NCBI GenBank assembly: GCA_037305845.1
Contig: CP147778.1
Coordinates: 2,336,001 to 2,400,000 of the forward strand
DNA from: Candidatus Freyarchaeum deiterrae
GTDB taxonomy: Archaea > Asgardarchaeota > Jordiarchaeia > Jordiarchaeales > Jordiarchaeaceae
DNA length: 64,000 nucleotides
Reading direction: 5' to 3'
In this document: positions 39,817 to 49,096 of the stretch, in pieces
Layout: each line of letters starts with the position of its first letter
How positions within the stretch are numbered: the stretch's first letter is position 1
The notes under the pieces: generated by a model
What the model saw: the letters and a program-made list of their open reading frames with translations, nothing else
The model's database searches: none
What the model was told of the DNA's origin: nothing
Position numbers and translations under genes: made by a program

Positions 39817-40350
39817 ATGCCCAAAACGGTGCCCAAAACAAGCGGTGAGAGTTTGAGTAGTTTGATTGAACATTTCAATTCAATTGGGAGCACAATCAAT
39901 GATTTGACCAAAACCTTTGGTAAGATACTAAGCGAAACTGATAATCGTCTAAAAGAAGCAGAAGCAAAAAATTCGGAACTTGAGGCATTCCTAAAAAAAG
40001 GTGATTCCTCTTTAAAAAATGATTTGGAAAAATTGAATGGGGCTCACGAGAATTTAAAGAACGAATTCGTGCAGAGAGAGGCGGAGATTCAGAGATCAAT
40101 TAAAAGCCTTACAGAGAACCAGAAGCGCATTCTATCCGCTCAGGGATCTCTTGAAATTTCTATTCAAAAACTAGAACAGAAATTTGACCAGCTAAATACA
40201 CAGATGGAAAAACGCTTACTGGAAATCTCCGAGAACATATCAAATGTAATATCTCCAGTGGAGAACTGGAACAAGGAAATGAACGCCATAAAAGCGGAGG
40301 TAGGTAGACTATCTCGTGAAATAGAAAAAAGACTTTTGGGTGAGAAGTAA
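39817..40350 (+). CDS. Coiled-coil protein
   Basis: Continuous heptad pattern over about 160 aa; stop abuts the next start (TAAATG). Confidence 0.75.
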   Translation: MPKTVPKTSGESLSSLIEHFNSIGSTINDLTKTFGKILSETDNRLKEAEAKNSELEAFLKKGDSSLKNDLEKLNGAHENLKNEFVQREAEIQRSIKSLTENQKRILSAQGSLEISIQKLEQKFDQLNTQMEKRLLEISENISNVISPVENWNKEMNAIKAEVGRLSREIEKRLLGEK

Positions 40351-41811
40351 ATGCTGGAATTTGAGGATACCAAATCAGGAACAATACATCGTTTTTATAT
40401 TGTAGACGCTCACCACCATTTAGGACAAGATGTTGATGGTCACAATAATCGAAACCCACTTGCACCCGGCGGAACATTCGATTTCTACGTCAAAGTAGGA
40501 GGACAACTTTCACAAATTTTTTCCGATAAACCTGATATTTTTAGAATTAGTCCCTGCGGTTTTATGAACGAGTTTATGCGAAATAATGAGAAGTGGAAAG
40601 ATACTCTGGATGGAACGTGGGCTGTGGATCAGACCGTTGTCTTCCCTTTCAACGATGATTTCAAGTGGCGGGAGGGAGACGAAGGTAATGCAACTTACTG
40701 GCGTTCTAACGATAATATCTCGAGGTGGGTTACCCGAGCCCCATATTCCTTTAGGTTGATCGGTTTCGGAAGAGTGGTTCCAACCGAGGGCGAACTAGCG
40801 ATAAAAGAGCTGCATAGAATGGTAGAAACCCTAGGGCTTAGAGGATTAAAGGTTCATCCGCGATCAGACGGTTGGAGTAGTAACATAGTTTCCCCAGAAG
40901 TAAAAAACATTCTAGTGGAAGCGGCAAAACTTAACATTCCAGTCCTCTTTGATACTAGAGGCTTTGGTCAGGTAATGGATATAAATGAAGTAACAAATAT
41001 GGCTAGAAGTGAACTAAAATCTATAGATAAGTCGCTTGTGGACAATCTCAGAGTAATTATGGCACATATCGGTTTTCACTTGGGGCATGATGAACTGTTC
41101 ACAGTATTGAGCCATCCTAACCTCTATGGTGATGTCTCAGGGGTTCATGATGCAGGGGTTTCTAGATTATTCGAAGAAGCCAAAGAAATTATGCCACCCA
41201 ATCTAGGAAGATATAGAAACTGGTCAGAGAAAATACTTTTTGGGACTGACTATAACTACTTTGATGTACCGCACGCGGTTCAATTCATGTCATATGTTCT
41301 GAGTAAAGATTTCCCAGGAACTCCCGAAGACGCGCAGCGTGTTCTGGGATCCAATATTTTGAAACTGGTTCCTCCATTCAAAAGGGAAACAAAAACAACT
41401 TTCACAAAGGTTCATGTGCCAATTGAATTAGCGGAGTTAACAGAAAACACATTAGCAAAACAGGTCGCGGGAATAGCTAACAATGAATCATACGATATTT
41501 CCGGCGTTGACTTTTTCATAGATCCGCATCCTAACTTTCAAGTTAGGCCTCGCGACTTCAAGATAACAATATCCCACAAGGAAAACAATCATCAGGAAGA
41601 CATAAACCTTATAGTAATTTCGGTATTAGATATACTAACAGTAGCCAGATTAGATAACGATATGATGAACGCTTCACCAATAAAAAACAGAATACTTCGA
41701 TACGACGACGCAATTTCACGCAGATCATTCTACGAAAAGCTCTGGCCCAAAAACCTGGAAACCAATCCTCAAAAAATGTCCGATTTCATAAAATCGATAA
41801 CCCAAACTTGA
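40351..41811 (+). CDS. Amidohydrolase-2 family metallohydrolase with C-terminal extension
   Basis: DAHHHLG, GLRGLKVHP, PVLFDT, IMAHIG, YGDVS, ILFGTDY. Confidence 0.85.
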   Translation: MLEFEDTKSGTIHRFYIVDAHHHLGQDVDGHNNRNPLAPGGTFDFYVKVGGQLSQIFSDKPDIFRISPCGFMNEFMRNNEKWKDTLDGTWAVDQTVVFPFNDDFKWREGDEGNATYWRSNDNISRWVTRAPYSFRLIGFGRVVPTEGELAIKELHRMVETLGLRGLKVHPRSDGWSSNIVSPEVKNILVEAAKLNIPVLFDTRGFGQVMDINEVTNMARSELKSIDKSLVDNLRVIMAHIGFHLGHDELFTVLSHPNLYGDVSGVHDAGVSRLFEEAKEIMPPNLGRYRNWSEKILFGTDYNYFDVPHAVQFMSYVLSKDFPGTPEDAQRVLGSNILKLVPPFKRETKTTFTKVHVPIELAELTENTLAKQVAGIANNESYDISGVDFFIDPHPNFQVRPRDFKITISHKENNHQEDINLIVISVLDILTVARLDNDMMNASPIKNRILRYDDAISRRSFYEKLWPKNLETNPQKMSDFIKSITQT

Positions 41812-41906
41812 TAATTCAAACTAAAATGATAATAAAAAATAACCACTCCCCTTCTTTAACAAATTAAATTTGTTAGTCAACACAGAAAGATGGGAGGAAA
41901 GCAAAA

Positions 41907-47016: not shown

Positions 47017-47026
47017 ATACCTTCCA

Positions 47027-47818
47027 CTAAGTAAATTCTTTCTCTGCTATTTCACATAAAACTTTAATCAGTTCACGAATTTTATTTATCTCAATAATAT
47101 CACTTGTGATAGTCAAATCAAGTACAGAAATTTCAACATTTTGTAATTCTGCCATAACCTTTAAACAATATGTGAGACTACCTCCTCCCAAAACATTTTC
47201 ATCGTCTAGTATGTTAAAACTTTTGCCAAGTGATCCTCTGAATTTCGCCAGAACATTACGAGGGTCTCTTCTAAAATTTTTGTCAACAAAAATTCTACTT
47301 CCATCCGAAGGTAATTTAGGTAGCGTCCTCAAATTAATTATAATAGCTCCCTTATTTTTCGACTTACTAATCTTTTCTACAAAGAGTGATTGAACAATTT
47401 TCGCGAAGTTCTCGCTTACATCTACTTTTCCCTCATAATCTGGGAAAAAGAAGTAATTGAAGGTTCTCTCGCCGCTTTCAAATTCTTCGTAAATCTTATT
47501 AACGGTACTAAATAATTTGTTATTGCCCTCACCGTAGGAAGTAGAACAAATAGCGAGGGGAATTCCCAAATTTTTCGTTTCTGAAACGGCGCTTATTCTT
47601 CCACTGCCCTTAAACGCTTCTACCTGCTCTGAAATCGAGGCGCTGTCAACCGTCTGTTCCAAAGTTGGGAAAACCTCTGTTTTATACTCAGAAACCAGAG
47701 AAATCGTTTCGCTTAAAACGTTCTTATATTTTTTCAACAGTTCAGAGAATTCCGAAGCTGCTCTCTCAAGCTTATTCGTAGCTTTCTCCGGCTCGTTATC
47801 TGTATTCAATACTATCAC
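47027..47818 (-). CDS. Hypothetical alpha/beta protein, possibly a degenerate N-formylglutamate amidohydrolase fold
   Basis: IIINLR...RIFVD...ENVLGGGSLT...SVLDLTI order echoes the FGase core but without metal ligands. Confidence 0.4.
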   Translation of the reverse strand: MIVLNTDNEPEKATNKLERAASEFSELLKKYKNVLSETISLVSEYKTEVFPTLEQTVDSASISEQVEAFKGSGRISAVSETKNLGIPLAICSTSYGEGNNKLFSTVNKIYEEFESGERTFNYFFFPDYEGKVDVSENFAKIVQSLFVEKISKSKNKGAIIINLRTLPKLPSDGSRIFVDKNFRRDPRNVLAKFRGSLGKSFNILDDENVLGGGSLTYCLKVMAELQNVEISVLDLTITSDIIEINKIRELIKVLCEIAEKEFT

Positions 47819-49096
47819 CTACTTGTTCCCACGAAACTCCTTCATTGTTCTAATAATTTCTATTTCCCGCTTCTTAAAATCCCCCAATTGTTCATTCAGA
47901 ACATTCATAGTTGTCCTAACTTCCTCCACCATACTCTCTATAACAGAGCTTTTCCCATTCAGTAGCTTAATAGCTTCTTCCAACCCTCCGCCTGCAATTT
48001 TACCCAAATTAGCGATTCTCGCCTCTATCTGTCCAACCTTACTTTCAACAGCCTTAATCCGACTCACCTCTCTCTCCAGATTTCTAACCCTGTTCTCCAA
48101 CTCCAAAAGTCTTTTACCAAAAAGATCGAAAGGTCTGCTCTTCTCTCCTCCCTCCGCTGACTCAACCCCGGCAGTATTCACGTTAGCCGTCAGCGATTCA
48201 GTAGTTCCTTTCTCAACCTCCCTACCAGCTGAGTTTGGTGACGTTTCTTCCCCAGTAATGCCCTCATTCACGTTTCCCGTTTCCCCAACAAGCTCTGGTT
48301 TTTTGACCGCTTCCTCTTTCACTTCAATTCCTCTAAGGTAAGCATCGTATACTTCCCCAAAGATTTCCGAAAACTCCCTATTATCCGATTCTTTATTACT
48401 AGTGGAAAAGATGCAGGTCATCTTATTCGCGTAGTTTAAACCCAAAAACCCTACTTTGTTAAGCCACCAATTAAAAACGCAGGATGAAAAGGCTTTATCC
48501 TCGAACCAGTTTTGAATAGATTTAACCAGCAGGTTATATTCGCGAGATGCTAATTCTCCTTTCTCAAACTCGTTTCTAATCCAAACATAGTTAAATAATC
48601 CGGTCTCCACACCTCCCTTCAACCAGTCAGAAACTCCCTCCTTAAAAATTCTCATACCAGTGTACCTGTAAGAGCGTTCCTCAAAACCCAGAATCGAAAA
48701 CATGTGGGCAATAAGTGACTTGGTATCCTTCTCCTTAGTTCTAAAAACACAAGCCCACTTCTCTCTTCCATCACAAACACAGCAGAATCTATCCACCTCG
48801 GAATCCAAAACAAGAATACACGAGAGTCCTGATTTGTAAATTAGAGGTACAACCACTTCGCCTGCAAGCAAATTCAAAAGCTTAATCACCGGATAAGAAT
48901 TCAAAGGATCAAGAACAGGTCCCCTATACGTACACAAAGTATAAGCTTTACTCGGATCTTTCTCTAAATCCTCGAGAAAGTCTCCCAAATCATCTGTCTC
49001 AACAAAAACAAACCCAGTGACTGTACCGTATTGGGCGCCAAACCATTTTGTTAGCCATCCCTTTAGTTCTTCAGCATGTCTCTTCATAAGAACCAC
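47819..49096 (-). CDS. Hypothetical protein with disordered linker and C-terminal coiled coil
   Basis: Globular N-terminal half, E/G/T-rich linker, heptads RLLELENRVRNLEREV...; stop abuts the next start. Confidence 0.7.
   Translation of the reverse strand: MVLMKRHAEELKGWLTKWFGAQYGTVTGFVFVETDDLGDFLEDLEKDPSKAYTLCTYRGPVLDPLNSYPVIKLLNLLAGEVVVPLIYKSGLSCILVLDSEVDRFCCVCDGREKWACVFRTKEKDTKSLIAHMFSILGFEERSYRYTGMRIFKEGVSDWLKGGVETGLFNYVWIRNEFEKGELASREYNLLVKSIQNWFEDKAFSSCVFNWWLNKVGFLGLNYANKMTCIFSTSNKESDNREFSEIFGEVYDAYLRGIEVKEEAVKKPELVGETGNVNEGITGEETSPNSAGREVEKGTTESLTANVNTAGVESAEGGEKSRPFDLFGKRLLELENRVRNLEREVSRIKAVESKVGQIEARIANLGKIAGGGLEEAIKLLNGKSSVIESMVEEVRTTMNVLNEQLGDFKKREIEIIRTMKEFRGNK

Follow-up and report, generated by a model that had tools for sequence, protein, structure and literature searches.

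Four of the six genes at positions 39817-49096 of the window, the 64,000-nucleotide stretch of Candidatus Freyarchaeum deiterrae DNA analysed here, form an Asgard-specific module whose members are inherited, duplicated and lost together. This core, of four genes and not six, encodes a GCS2-type carboxylate-amine ligase, a partner protein, an Amidohydro_2 metal hydrolase and a protein that couples a Cdc48N-type double-psi barrel to a vWA domain. Most Asgard archaea keep the four genes together, and we found no published description of this ligase-hydrolase-vWA module in the literature. As its function, we tentatively favor a reversible modification of proteins or peptides through amide bonds.

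Organization and conservation of the module

The original prediction described two converging three-gene units, each led by a coiled-coil gene; the six open reading frames, their coordinates, strands and abutting starts were all confirmed, and nearly every domain assignment holds. On the plus strand, a gene for a heptad-rich protein of 177 aa (39817-40350) precedes those for the hydrolase (486 aa, 40351-41811) and the Cdc48N-vWA protein (486 aa, 41907-43367). On the minus strand, a gene for a 425-aa protein with an N-terminal domain and a C-terminal coiled coil (47819-49096) leads, followed by those for the 263-aa partner (47027-47818) and the 1191-aa ligase (43441-47016), the latter divided into a ligase domain (residues 1-480; 45577-47016) and a C-terminal array of about six beta-sandwich (Ig/MG-like) domains (43441-45576). 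The two units are separated by 73 bp (43368-43440), with runs of T directly after both stop codons, a sequence that is probably a two-way terminator. The view that all six proteins are cytoplasmic is supported, since no 19-residue stretch in any of them has the hydrophobicity of a membrane helix.

The convergent orientation, which means that there is no shared transcript, and the terminator-like gap would be in line with two unrelated operons that are neighbors by chance. This explanation has almost no likelihood, however, as it is contradicted by a paralogous set in the same genome, by same-strand operons and by matching phyletic profiles. The paralogous hydrolase, Cdc48N-vWA and ligase genes (2917694-2925810 of the genome) have the same convergent layout, which recurs in further Jordarchaeia and at locus L096 of a separate family, f3. 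The Thorarchaeota have the vWA-hydrolase pair about 7 kb from the ligase, toward which it converges, in 21 of the 22 loci with enough flank. Other Asgard lineages show at least four further linked arrangements, bringing the number to at least five, and these include same-strand operons: in the lineages with short-form ligases (550-600 aa, without the beta-sandwich array), partner, ligase and hydrolase lie on the same strand in 11 of 20 fetched loci, and the vWA gene joins this operon in two of them (L091 and L092). The phyletic profiles agree closely. Among 400 Asgard genomes, 251 have the ligase and 250 the vWA protein, and the two family tallies are nearly identical: of the 30 families listed individually, 16 have both proteins and 14 have neither. 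Orthologs of the hydrolase and of the vWA protein were each found in all of five ligase-positive genomes (81-96% complete, each a single contig) and in none of five near-complete, ligase-negative ones (92-97% complete); nine of the ten genomes are a single contig. The ligase and hydrolase trees resolve the same five clades, and the ligase is encoded in Lokiarchaeum ossiferum, a carrier of the module. The two converging units, whose linkage had been in question, do co-occur in other genomes and are one conserved functional set.

Module proteins and accessory genes

The ligase matches GCS2 (PF04107) at 33.4 bits (cut-off 21) and also YbdK-type NCBIfam models, with a TIGR02050 score of 84 bits, below the cut-off of 176. 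Its family profile aligns to the YbdK structures 1r8g and 1tt4, and the conserved residues comprise the GhExE motif (G20-I-E22-M-E24), E120, H173/H175 and E285-x-R287; all catalytic motifs are intact. In the AlphaFold model (pLDDT 81.8), residues 14-460 form the alpha/beta ligase domain, and residues 480-1191 are all-beta, with about six sandwich domains. The proposed Ig-like array is upheld by Foldseek, in which the top matches are the MG arrays of alpha2-macroglobulin, complement and CD109 (E 1e-17, with low TM-scores); the CGEQ thioester motif is absent from the array. Haloarchaea use a GCS2-family enzyme for gamma-Glu-Cys, and this ligase and its paralog are the sole PF04107 matches in the genome. 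That the ligase is the gamma-glutamylcysteine (low-molecular-weight thiol) synthetase of the organism, with neighbors unrelated to it, is nevertheless highly improbable, given its strong linkage to and co-distribution with the hydrolase, the vWA protein and the partner, its sub-cut-off TIGR02050 score, the distance of its clade from YbdK (at least 172 bits for the Asgard ligase clade versus at most 63 for bacterial YbdK) and the many Asgard families that lack the ligase entirely.

The partner has no Pfam match. Its model (pLDDT 83) consists of a long N-terminal helix and an alpha/beta domain that resembles N-formylglutamate amidohydrolase (Z 12.4; 2q7s) and pyroglutamyl peptidase I (Z 12.0; 2ebj, 3rnz), with 147-174 residues aligned. 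The description of this protein as a degenerate hydrolase is correct, because D206 and G211-G213 are the only conserved residues; no catalytic Cys/His/Glu or metal ligand is conserved. The gene is invariably found just upstream of that for the ligase, and hhalign relates the partner to the product of the 223-aa gene immediately upstream of the ligase in Thorarchaeota (probability 97.7%, E 1.4e-12) and to the C-terminal end of the 380-650-aa product encoded upstream in short-form lineages (probability 82-96%). The partner is probably a binding subunit rather than an enzyme.

The hydrolase matches Amidohydro_2 (PF04909; E 2.6e-17, above the cut-off), and about 140 aa of conserved sequence extend its C-terminus. 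Residues D19, H21, H23, K167, H169, H239 and D300 are invariant in 18 orthologs, and the metal site is intact. The nearest solved sequences (LigW, gamma-resorcylate decarboxylase) are matched with non-significant E-values; the characterized Amidohydro_2 enzymes are mostly small-molecule decarboxylases, hydratases and lactonases.

In the Cdc48N-vWA protein, the first 60 or so residues are E/K-rich and are followed by the vWA domain, which matches PF00092 directly (29.8 bits; cut-off 23.8). The CDC48_N assignment (PF02359) is not reached by this protein on its own and stands through its homologs, with 4 of 14 family members matching (best E 1.1e-8) and the family profile aligning to VAT-N (1cz4, E 0.011); the same profile gives no match to eukaryotic DEPDC5/Iml1. 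The MIDAS residues D248, S250, S252, T373 and D407 are invariant in 14 homologs, and the MIDAS is intact. An 893-aa paralog encoded on the plus strand at 25542-28223 fuses the two proteins, its halves showing tblastn homology to the separate hydrolase and vWA genes. When aligned to these, however, the hydrolase half has H21, H169, H239 and D300 replaced and the vWA half has D248, S252, T373 and D407 replaced, so that both have lost their metal ligands. Other Jordarchaeia and the Thorarchaeota have orthologous fusions close to the ligase locus.

The remaining genes are accessories. The 177-aa protein gives many sub-threshold matches to coiled-coil families; the stop codon of its gene abuts the hydrolase start, but orthologs (54-56% identity) are confined to two loci of the same genus (L008 and L009), and no such gene lies upstream of the hydrolase in other Jordarchaeia, Thorarchaeota or the short-form lineages. 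The 425-aa protein, whose gene abuts that of the partner, has a globular N-terminal part with no fold assigned and is rich in heptads from about residue 236. It has orthologs at eight loci, all from Jordarchaeia, and matches no Pfam family, no atlas entry and, by profile comparison, no upstream gene from another lineage. The Glu-rich (E/K-rich) tail is likewise found only in Jordarchaeia orthologs of this copy of the vWA protein. The coiled-coil proteins and the tail had been put forward as substrates; with one accessory restricted to a genus and the others to Jordarchaeia, none can be a conserved substrate.

Coiled-coil genes also adjoin the module elsewhere (523 aa at the paralogous locus; 794 and 805 aa at loci L096 and L048). 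Their independent recruitment in several lineages, together with the long Ig/MG-like arrays fused to an enzyme and the expansion of vWA paralogs (three in this genome, plus the dead fusion), would be consistent with a role in building or cross-linking a large assembly in the cytoplasm. Isopeptide-type bonds would then be formed by the ligase inside its own beta-sandwich arrays, the vWA proteins or the lineage-specific coiled-coil proteins, or from one to another, and would be remodeled by the hydrolase. We consider this unlikely: the ligases of the largest lineages are short forms without the array, the coiled-coil genes share no homology, and neither a thioester nor a known isopeptide motif is present.

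Predicted function

The original prediction was of a reversible system for protein tagging or cross-linking. Make-and-break amide chemistry is plausible because the ligase, the hydrolase and the vWA protein keep their catalytic or metal-binding residues. The protein target fared less well: no Pup-like small ORF fits in the cluster, with its gaps of 95, 73 and 10 bp, and genes for a proteasome, an AAA+ protein or a ubiquitin-like protein are not conserved next to the module. Under the reading that we tentatively favor, the ligase would be held or steered by its inactive, FGase-fold partner and would phosphorylate a carboxylate, that of free glutamate or of a glutamate-type side chain being the likeliest; the activated group would then be joined to an amine of a protein or peptide. 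The Cdc48N-vWA protein may recognize the target or the mark through its barrel and its MIDAS metal site, a type of site that typically binds an acidic residue of the ligand. It could also bring the hydrolase to cleave or process the amide, a physical coupling suggested by the fusion of the two in a paralog. The beta-sandwich array would serve as a scaffold, and the two coiled-coil proteins and the acidic tail would be additions made in this genus. The dead hydrolase-vWA fusion, the pseudo-enzyme partner, the beta-sandwich arrays and the Cdc48N domain hint at a protein target, because such features belong to protein assemblies and not to metabolic enzymes. Moreover, PafA illustrates that GCS2-derived ligases can act on proteins (PMC2588565).

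Counting against this reading are the missing tag gene and neighbors and the resemblance of the hydrolase to small-molecule enzymes. This resemblance and the missing tag gene also speak for the main rival, a FluG/NodGS- or Puu/Pau-type small-molecule amide pathway. Possible, if somewhat doubtful, this pathway would have the ligase glutamylate or amidate a free amine or peptide and the amidohydrolase make the ligase substrate or free the product, with the vWA and pseudo-peptidase proteins merely scaffolding or regulating the enzymes. Ligase-amidohydrolase pairs are indeed known from small-molecule pathways: in FluG and its bacterial two-gene counterparts, the amidohydrolase is accompanied by a gamma-glutamyl ligase from the same superfamily, and a gamma-glutamylated metabolite is the presumed substrate (PMC6478659); GCS2/YbdK enzymes of known activity use free amino acids (PMC2588565). 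The partner-ligase pair of about 50 Thorarchaeota loci follows, on the same strand, ATPase genes of Opp/Dpp-type (oligopeptide) ABC transporters, which would fit a free-peptide or metabolite substrate; this synteny is, however, limited to one lineage. The module has no conserved association with an oxidoreductase, a transaminase or any other pathway enzyme, and an adaptor with an intact MIDAS, a dead fusion, a pseudo-peptidase and a 700-aa array would be unusual for a metabolic pair.

Comparison with known systems

The pupylation system of Actinobacteria consists of the PafA ligase, the Dop depupylase, Pup and the Mpa/ARC-proteasome. The Asgard module is similar in that its ligase, a member of the same superfamily, is coupled to a hydrolase and to a part related to the Cdc48/ARC N-domain, but it has no Pup-like ORF and no linked gene for an AAA+ unfoldase or proteasome. 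PafA, a ligase derived from GCS2, makes gamma-glutamyl isopeptides on proteins and has a dedicated amide hydrolase as its partner (PMC2588565). The module ligase matches GCS2, with no Pup-ligase family among its Pfam matches at E up to 0.01, and the module hydrolase is an Amidohydro_2 TIM barrel rather than a PafA paralog. FluG/NodGS and the bacterial two-gene counterparts likewise show a recurrent pairing, with a metal amidohydrolase fused or adjacent to a carboxylate-amine ligase of the same superfamily (PMC6478659). Their ligase is GS type I-like, however, in contrast to the GCS2-like ligase of the module, and neither a vWA nor a pseudo-peptidase protein accompanies them. The site of the FluG amidohydrolase is binuclear and contains a carbamylated lysine; the HxH/H/H/D pattern of the module hydrolase would fit a mononuclear, ACMSD-type site.

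The Cdc48/VAT N-domain and the MIDAS vWA adaptors (Rpn10, MoxR-associated) find their counterpart in the module protein that joins a Cdc48-N-type double-psi barrel with a full-MIDAS vWA; here, the barrel is connected directly to the vWA domain, with no AAA+ attached or conserved nearby. The alpha/beta domain of the partner shares the fold of N-formylglutamate amidohydrolase and pyroglutamyl peptidase I, but the partner adds the long N-terminal helix and keeps only D206 and the GGG loop. Finally, the ligase has the catalytic fold and the GhExE, His pair and E-x-R motifs of the YbdK/GCS2 carboxylate-amine ligases (PF04107, TIGR02050; E. coli 1r8g, Salmonella 1tt4) and, because of this match, presumably the same chemistry, an ATP-dependent activation of the carboxylate followed by attack of the amine. 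It differs from YbdK in its identity of only about 25-35% across a third of the domain, in a score that stays under the NCBIfam family cut-off and in having a catalytic domain of 480 aa instead of about 370, fused to about 700 aa of beta-sandwich domains except in the 550-600-aa short forms. It is also set apart by its constant association with the pseudo-peptidase gene, its linkage to the hydrolase and the vWA protein, and the restriction of its clade to Asgard archaea.

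Two converging units form one four-gene set

The genome of the window consists of one contig of 3.58 Mb, and all six open reading frames claimed at 39817-49096 are present as described. On the plus strand, a heptad-rich protein of 177 aa (39817-40350), the stop codon of which abuts the next gene, is followed by an Amidohydro_2 enzyme of 486 aa (40351-41811; PF04909, E 2.6e-17), here called the hydrolase, and by a vWA-domain protein, likewise of 486 aa, the E/K-rich tail of which spans some 60 aa (41907-43367). The minus strand carries a GCS2/YbdK-type ligase of 1191 aa (43441-47016), a 263-aa protein with no family match (47027-47818), here called the partner, and a 425-aa protein, the C-terminal 190 aa of which are heptad-rich (47819-49096). 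The convergent gap between the plus- and minus-strand units measures 73 bp and has T-runs on both strands. All six proteins lack a hydrophobic stretch of the length that a membrane helix needs, in line with the cytoplasmic look ascribed to them.

The original prediction left the linkage of the converging units unproven. That linkage is shown by three independent lines, namely a second copy, the arrangements found in other lineages, and a matching distribution; the ligase, the partner, the hydrolase and the vWA protein form one unit, the conserved core of which is four genes and not six. Chance adjacency of the two units, a rival that the convergent orientation had left room for, is contradicted by these lines and very unlikely. 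The second set, found by tblastn, lies at 2,917,694-2,925,810 in the same genome and has the plus/plus/minus convergent layout of the window; its hydrolase and Cdc48N-vWA protein are 34% and 30% identical to those of the window, and its ligase, of 1399 aa, is 38% identical over the catalytic domain. We also compared 79 loci fetched by the ligase profile and 20 from genomes with short ligases (550-600 aa). Other Jordarchaeia and a separate family, f3 (locus L096), share the layout of the window. Thorarchaeota place the vWA-hydrolase pair about 7 kb from the ligase, in convergent orientation to it, in 21 of the 22 loci with enough flank; the genes in between (DUF92, SPFH/NfeD, Rce1-like and HEAT) appear to be unrelated housekeeping genes. 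In the short-ligase lineages, partner, ligase and hydrolase stand on one strand in 11/20 loci, and two loci (L091 and L092) show the single-strand order vWA, partner, ligase, hydrolase.

The units co-occur across Asgard lineages. Of 400 Asgard genomes, 251 contain the ligase domain and 250 the vWA family; these and the following figures are given as counts and not as statistics, because related genomes are dependent samples. Among the individually listed Asgard families, both are present in f1-f3, f11 (17/22 each), f13 (12/12 each), f15-f21 and f30, and both are absent from f4-f10, f12, f14 and f22-f29, the family tallies being nearly the same. Five ligase-positive genomes (81-96% complete, each one contig) all contain the hydrolase (270-634 bits) and the vWA protein (375-523 bits); five ligase-negative, near-complete genomes (92-97%) lack orthologs of both and have only generic Amidohydro_2 paralogs, at no more than 74 bits. 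Moreover, the ligase tree and the hydrolase tree, the latter a quick version, contain the same five clades with agreeing inner groupings; in each of them, a long branch leads to the second Jordarchaeia copy.

The ligase and its upstream partner

The profile of the ligase family aligns to the YbdK-type structures 1r8g and 1tt4. The GhExE motif, which is the first-strand Mg/ATP-site motif of carboxylate-amine ligases (PMC2588565), is matched by G20-I-E22-M-E24, with E22 and E24 at least 90% conserved among 58 homologs. E120 is invariant or nearly so in the same homologs, and H173 and H175 (in an FG-x-H-x-H segment) as well as E285 and R287 (E-x-R, in the last core strand) are invariant, in segments that align to 1tt4. 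Since these active site motifs are retained, the enzyme is predicted to be active. It scores 33.4 bits against PF04107 (cut-off 21), in a match restricted to some 50 of 291 model positions, and 84 bits against the NCBIfam YbdK model TIGR02050, below the cut-off of 176.4. In a search of 5.8 billion proteins, the ligase matches of at least 172 bits that bear an informative taxon label are all from Asgard archaea, with three exceptions that are probably mis-binned; the labels include Thor-, Jord/Frey-, Loki-, Hel-, Hod- and Heimdall-archaeal, and the carriers include the cultured Lokiarchaeum ossiferum. Among public sequences, those closest to the window's ligase bear the labels Candidatus Jordarchaeum, Jordarchaeia or Freyarchaeota, and bacterial YbdK enzymes reach at most 63 bits in the same search. 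On its sequence relationships, the ligase is a separate Asgard clade within the GCS2 superfamily. That it is a plain gamma-Glu-Cys synthetase is a rival explanation, which we consider very unlikely.

An AlphaFold model (pLDDT 81.8) places the ligase domain at residues 14-460, and the protein beyond the catalytic domain, to residue 1191, is modelled as all-beta, with about six sandwich domains. Foldseek ranks the MG-domain arrays of alpha2-macroglobulin, complement and CD109 highest for this tail (E about 1e-17, at TM-scores of at most 0.17). The Ig-like array proposed for the ligase is thus borne out, by model and structure search together, as an Ig/MG-like array. The likeness to alpha2-macroglobulin and complement is at the level of the fold only: in those proteins, a CGEQ thioester and a TED domain accompany the MG array, whereas the ligase lacks both and shows no helical TED-like segment in the model past residue 480, so that a thioester protein was rejected.

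In the model of the 263-aa partner (pLDDT 83), a helix of 60 residues accompanies an alpha/beta domain. The best match of this domain is the N-formylglutamate amidohydrolase 2q7s (VIA Z 12.4, 174 residues aligned, rmsd 3.4), followed by pyroglutamyl peptidase I (2ebj and 3rnz; VIA Z 12.0); the Foldseek E values are 5e-5 to 1e-4. Catalytic residues, whether metal ligands or a Cys-His-Glu triad, are not conserved among 23 family members. The only conserved positions in these members are D206 and G211-G213, so that we take the partner to be a pseudo-enzyme; the GGG loop is itself lost in the short-form lineages. It is homologous to the 223-aa gene directly before the ligase in Thorarchaeota (hhalign probability 97.7%, E 1.4e-12) and to the C-terminal domain of a 380-650-aa gene before the short ligases (hhalign probability 82-96%). 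As a rule, then, the ligase is preceded by a pseudo-peptidase partner; only the second Jordarchaeia ligase copy departs from this, with other genes upstream.

Hydrolase, vWA protein and accessory genes

The hydrolase scores 63.9 bits against PF04909 (cut-off 26.4), and D19, H21, H23, K167, H169, H239 and D300 are invariant in 18 orthologs. Its predicted metal ligands are the HxH motif (H21 and H23) and H169, H239 and D300, which would lie on strands 5, 6 and 8, respectively. The family profile finds no relative among solved structures at E below 0.001, and no match, even at E up to 10, to the FluG-like structure 2QPX. Known Amidohydro_2 enzymes have mostly small-molecule substrates.

In the vWA protein, the vWA domain matches PF00092 above its cut-off, and the MIDAS residues (DxSxS...T...D) D248, S250, S252, T373 and D407 are invariant in 14 homologs. 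The N-terminal region of the window's protein has no match to PF02359 (CDC48_N) at E of 0.01 or below; of the 14 aligned homologs, four do match (best E 1.1e-8), the second-copy paralog reaches 33.3 bits, just under the cut-off of 35.1, and the family profile reaches VAT-N (1cz4) at E 0.011. By homology, this region is predicted to form a Cdc48-N-type barrel. Homologs of the hydrolase and of the Cdc48N-vWA protein are fused at 25542-28223, where the counterparts of H21, H169, H239 and D300 and of the MIDAS residues D248, S252, T373 and D407 are all replaced. Orthologs of the fusion are found close to the ligase locus in other Jordarchaeia and in Thorarchaeota, and the fused form speaks for a hydrolase and a vWA protein that operate in physical contact. 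A third Cdc48N-vWA paralog, 41% identical to that of the window, is encoded in the same genome at 2444196-2445449 (locus L004, 6214-7515, plus strand), between an alcohol-dehydrogenase-like gene and a DUF5788 gene, with no ligase or hydrolase beside it.

Of the six genes originally grouped together, the ligase, partner, hydrolase and vWA genes are conserved, whereas the coiled-coil genes and the Glu-rich tail turn out to be local accessories. The 177-aa gene occurs at only two loci, in the same genus, and the 425-aa gene at only eight, all in Jordarchaeia. The Glu/Lys-rich tail is limited to Jordarchaeia orthologs of the window's copy; vWA paralogs have short acidic tails at the C-terminus in its place, and most other lineages carry no tail. 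Neither hhalign nor BLAST relates the 425-aa and 177-aa proteins to the 145-aa upstream gene of Thorarchaeota, to the 523-, 340- and 245-aa genes of the paralogous loci, or to the 794/805-aa upstream genes, and the protein atlas offered no clue to the 425-aa protein. As a further rival, a scaffold that assembles itself or is cross-linked seems unlikely to us.

The surroundings of the module vary. Divergent from the 177-aa gene, a 293-aa protein (38543-39424, minus strand) resembles a gelsolin-type domain in its first 95 or so residues, followed by a Pro/Thr/Lys-rich linker and a C-terminal domain; a locus of the same genus (L008) has an ORF of about 290 aa in this place. Divergent from the 425-aa gene are two adjacent paralogous genes of 345 and 451 aa (49384-50421 and 50437-51792, plus strand), found beside the cluster only in the same genus. 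At the second copy (L003), a 340-aa protein without a Pfam match (14079-15101, minus strand) adjoins the paralogous ligase, upstream of which it is kept in two other Jordarchaeia loci; a Ras/Arf-family small GTPase (15219-15767, plus strand; PF00071, E 1e-38) is divergent from it, and the two genes together span 2926079-2927767 of the genome. In two other Asgard families, a coiled-coil gene of about 800 aa lies directly upstream of partner-ligase (L048, 6880-9297, plus strand; L096, 11560-13944, minus strand). The L048 protein ends in an EAP30/Vps36 domain of the ESCRT-II type (PF04157, E 3e-19); the L096 protein, its homolog along nearly the full length (BLAST E 3.5e-22), has no significant EAP30 match. 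In about 50 Thorarchaeota loci (for example L041, 1-9233), a pair of ABC ATPase genes of the Opp/Dpp type and the gene of a conserved 145-aa protein that matches no family precede partner-ligase on the same strand, and several conserved opposite-strand genes lie just upstream. A conserved 241-aa gene upstream in the short-form lineages was set aside as an apparent cis-prenyltransferase, from motif alone.

A candidate amide system and its known relatives

Judged by their conserved residues, the ligase, the hydrolase metal site and the vWA MIDAS are intact. We tentatively favour a system that makes and breaks amides on a protein or peptide, in which the ligase, with its dead FGase-fold partner, would be the writer, the Cdc48N-vWA protein would dock on an acidic determinant via its MIDAS, and the attached amidohydrolase would serve as eraser or processor. 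A protein or peptide target is suggested by the protein-assembly character of the pseudo-enzyme subunit, the dead fusion paralog, the beta-sandwich array and the Cdc48-N barrel, and has a precedent in PafA, a GCS2-derived protein ligase (PMC2588565). Against it, no Pup-like tag ORF fits the cluster, the internal gaps of which are only 95, 73 and 10 bp, the locus maps of the lineages, which take in ORFs of 70 aa or more, show no conserved small gene, and no AAA+ or proteasome gene is found among the conserved neighbours. The mostly small-molecule repertoire of Amidohydro_2 enzymes also argues against it. The main rival is a FluG/NodGS-like small-molecule pathway, which we consider somewhat unlikely. 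The Opp/Dpp-type ABC ATPase genes directly upstream of partner-ligase in Thorarchaeota would fit a free-peptide substrate for such a pathway, and FluG/NodGS itself pairs an amidohydrolase with a gamma-glutamyl ligase, fused or adjacent, thought to handle a gamma-glutamylated metabolite (PMC6478659).

A narrower form of the protein-directed reading, which we put forward only as speculation and think unlikely as a whole, is an Asgard-specific, ubiquitin-independent system that places a reversible amide mark (glutamyl or isopeptide-type) on proteins, with a GCS2-type writer, a pseudo-peptidase specificity subunit, a Cdc48N-vWA reader and an Amidohydro_2 eraser. No known archaea are more closely related to eukaryotes than the Asgard archaea, and protein machineries specific to their lineages are searched for the roots of eukaryotic regulation. 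Here, about 60% of the sampled Asgard genomes, one of them cultured, retain an enzyme-adaptor set of four genes that joins amide-forming and amide-breaking enzymes to Cdc48-N and vWA/MIDAS domains, which handle proteins in eukaryotes; the Cdc48N-vWA architecture could be a prokaryotic forerunner of like-built eukaryotic proteins. If protein-modifying, the module would add to ubiquitin and Pup a third case in which enzymatic protein tagging was invented independently; if metabolic, it would define an unknown Asgard-wide amide metabolite. In either event, the parts list is precise enough for a direct biochemical test.

PADLOC matched none of the five non-coiled-coil proteins to a defence system and gave coiled-coil noise only for the 177-aa protein, and we found no description of a ligase-partner-hydrolase-vWA module in the searchable full-text literature. 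The module differs from pupylation (PafA/Dop/Pup) in that Dop, the hydrolase of that system, is a paralog of the ligase, whereas here the hydrolase is of the Amidohydro_2 family, and in that pupylation is linked to a proteasomal ATPase, whereas the module has no linked AAA+ or proteasome gene. With FluG/NodGS it has in common the adjacency of hydrolase and ligase; the ligase of that system, however, is GS type I-like (Gln-synt_C), whereas that of the module is GCS2-type, with no Gln-synt_C match. We rate the module as a coupled pair of carboxylate-amine ligase and hydrolase, the partner set of which is unprecedented.
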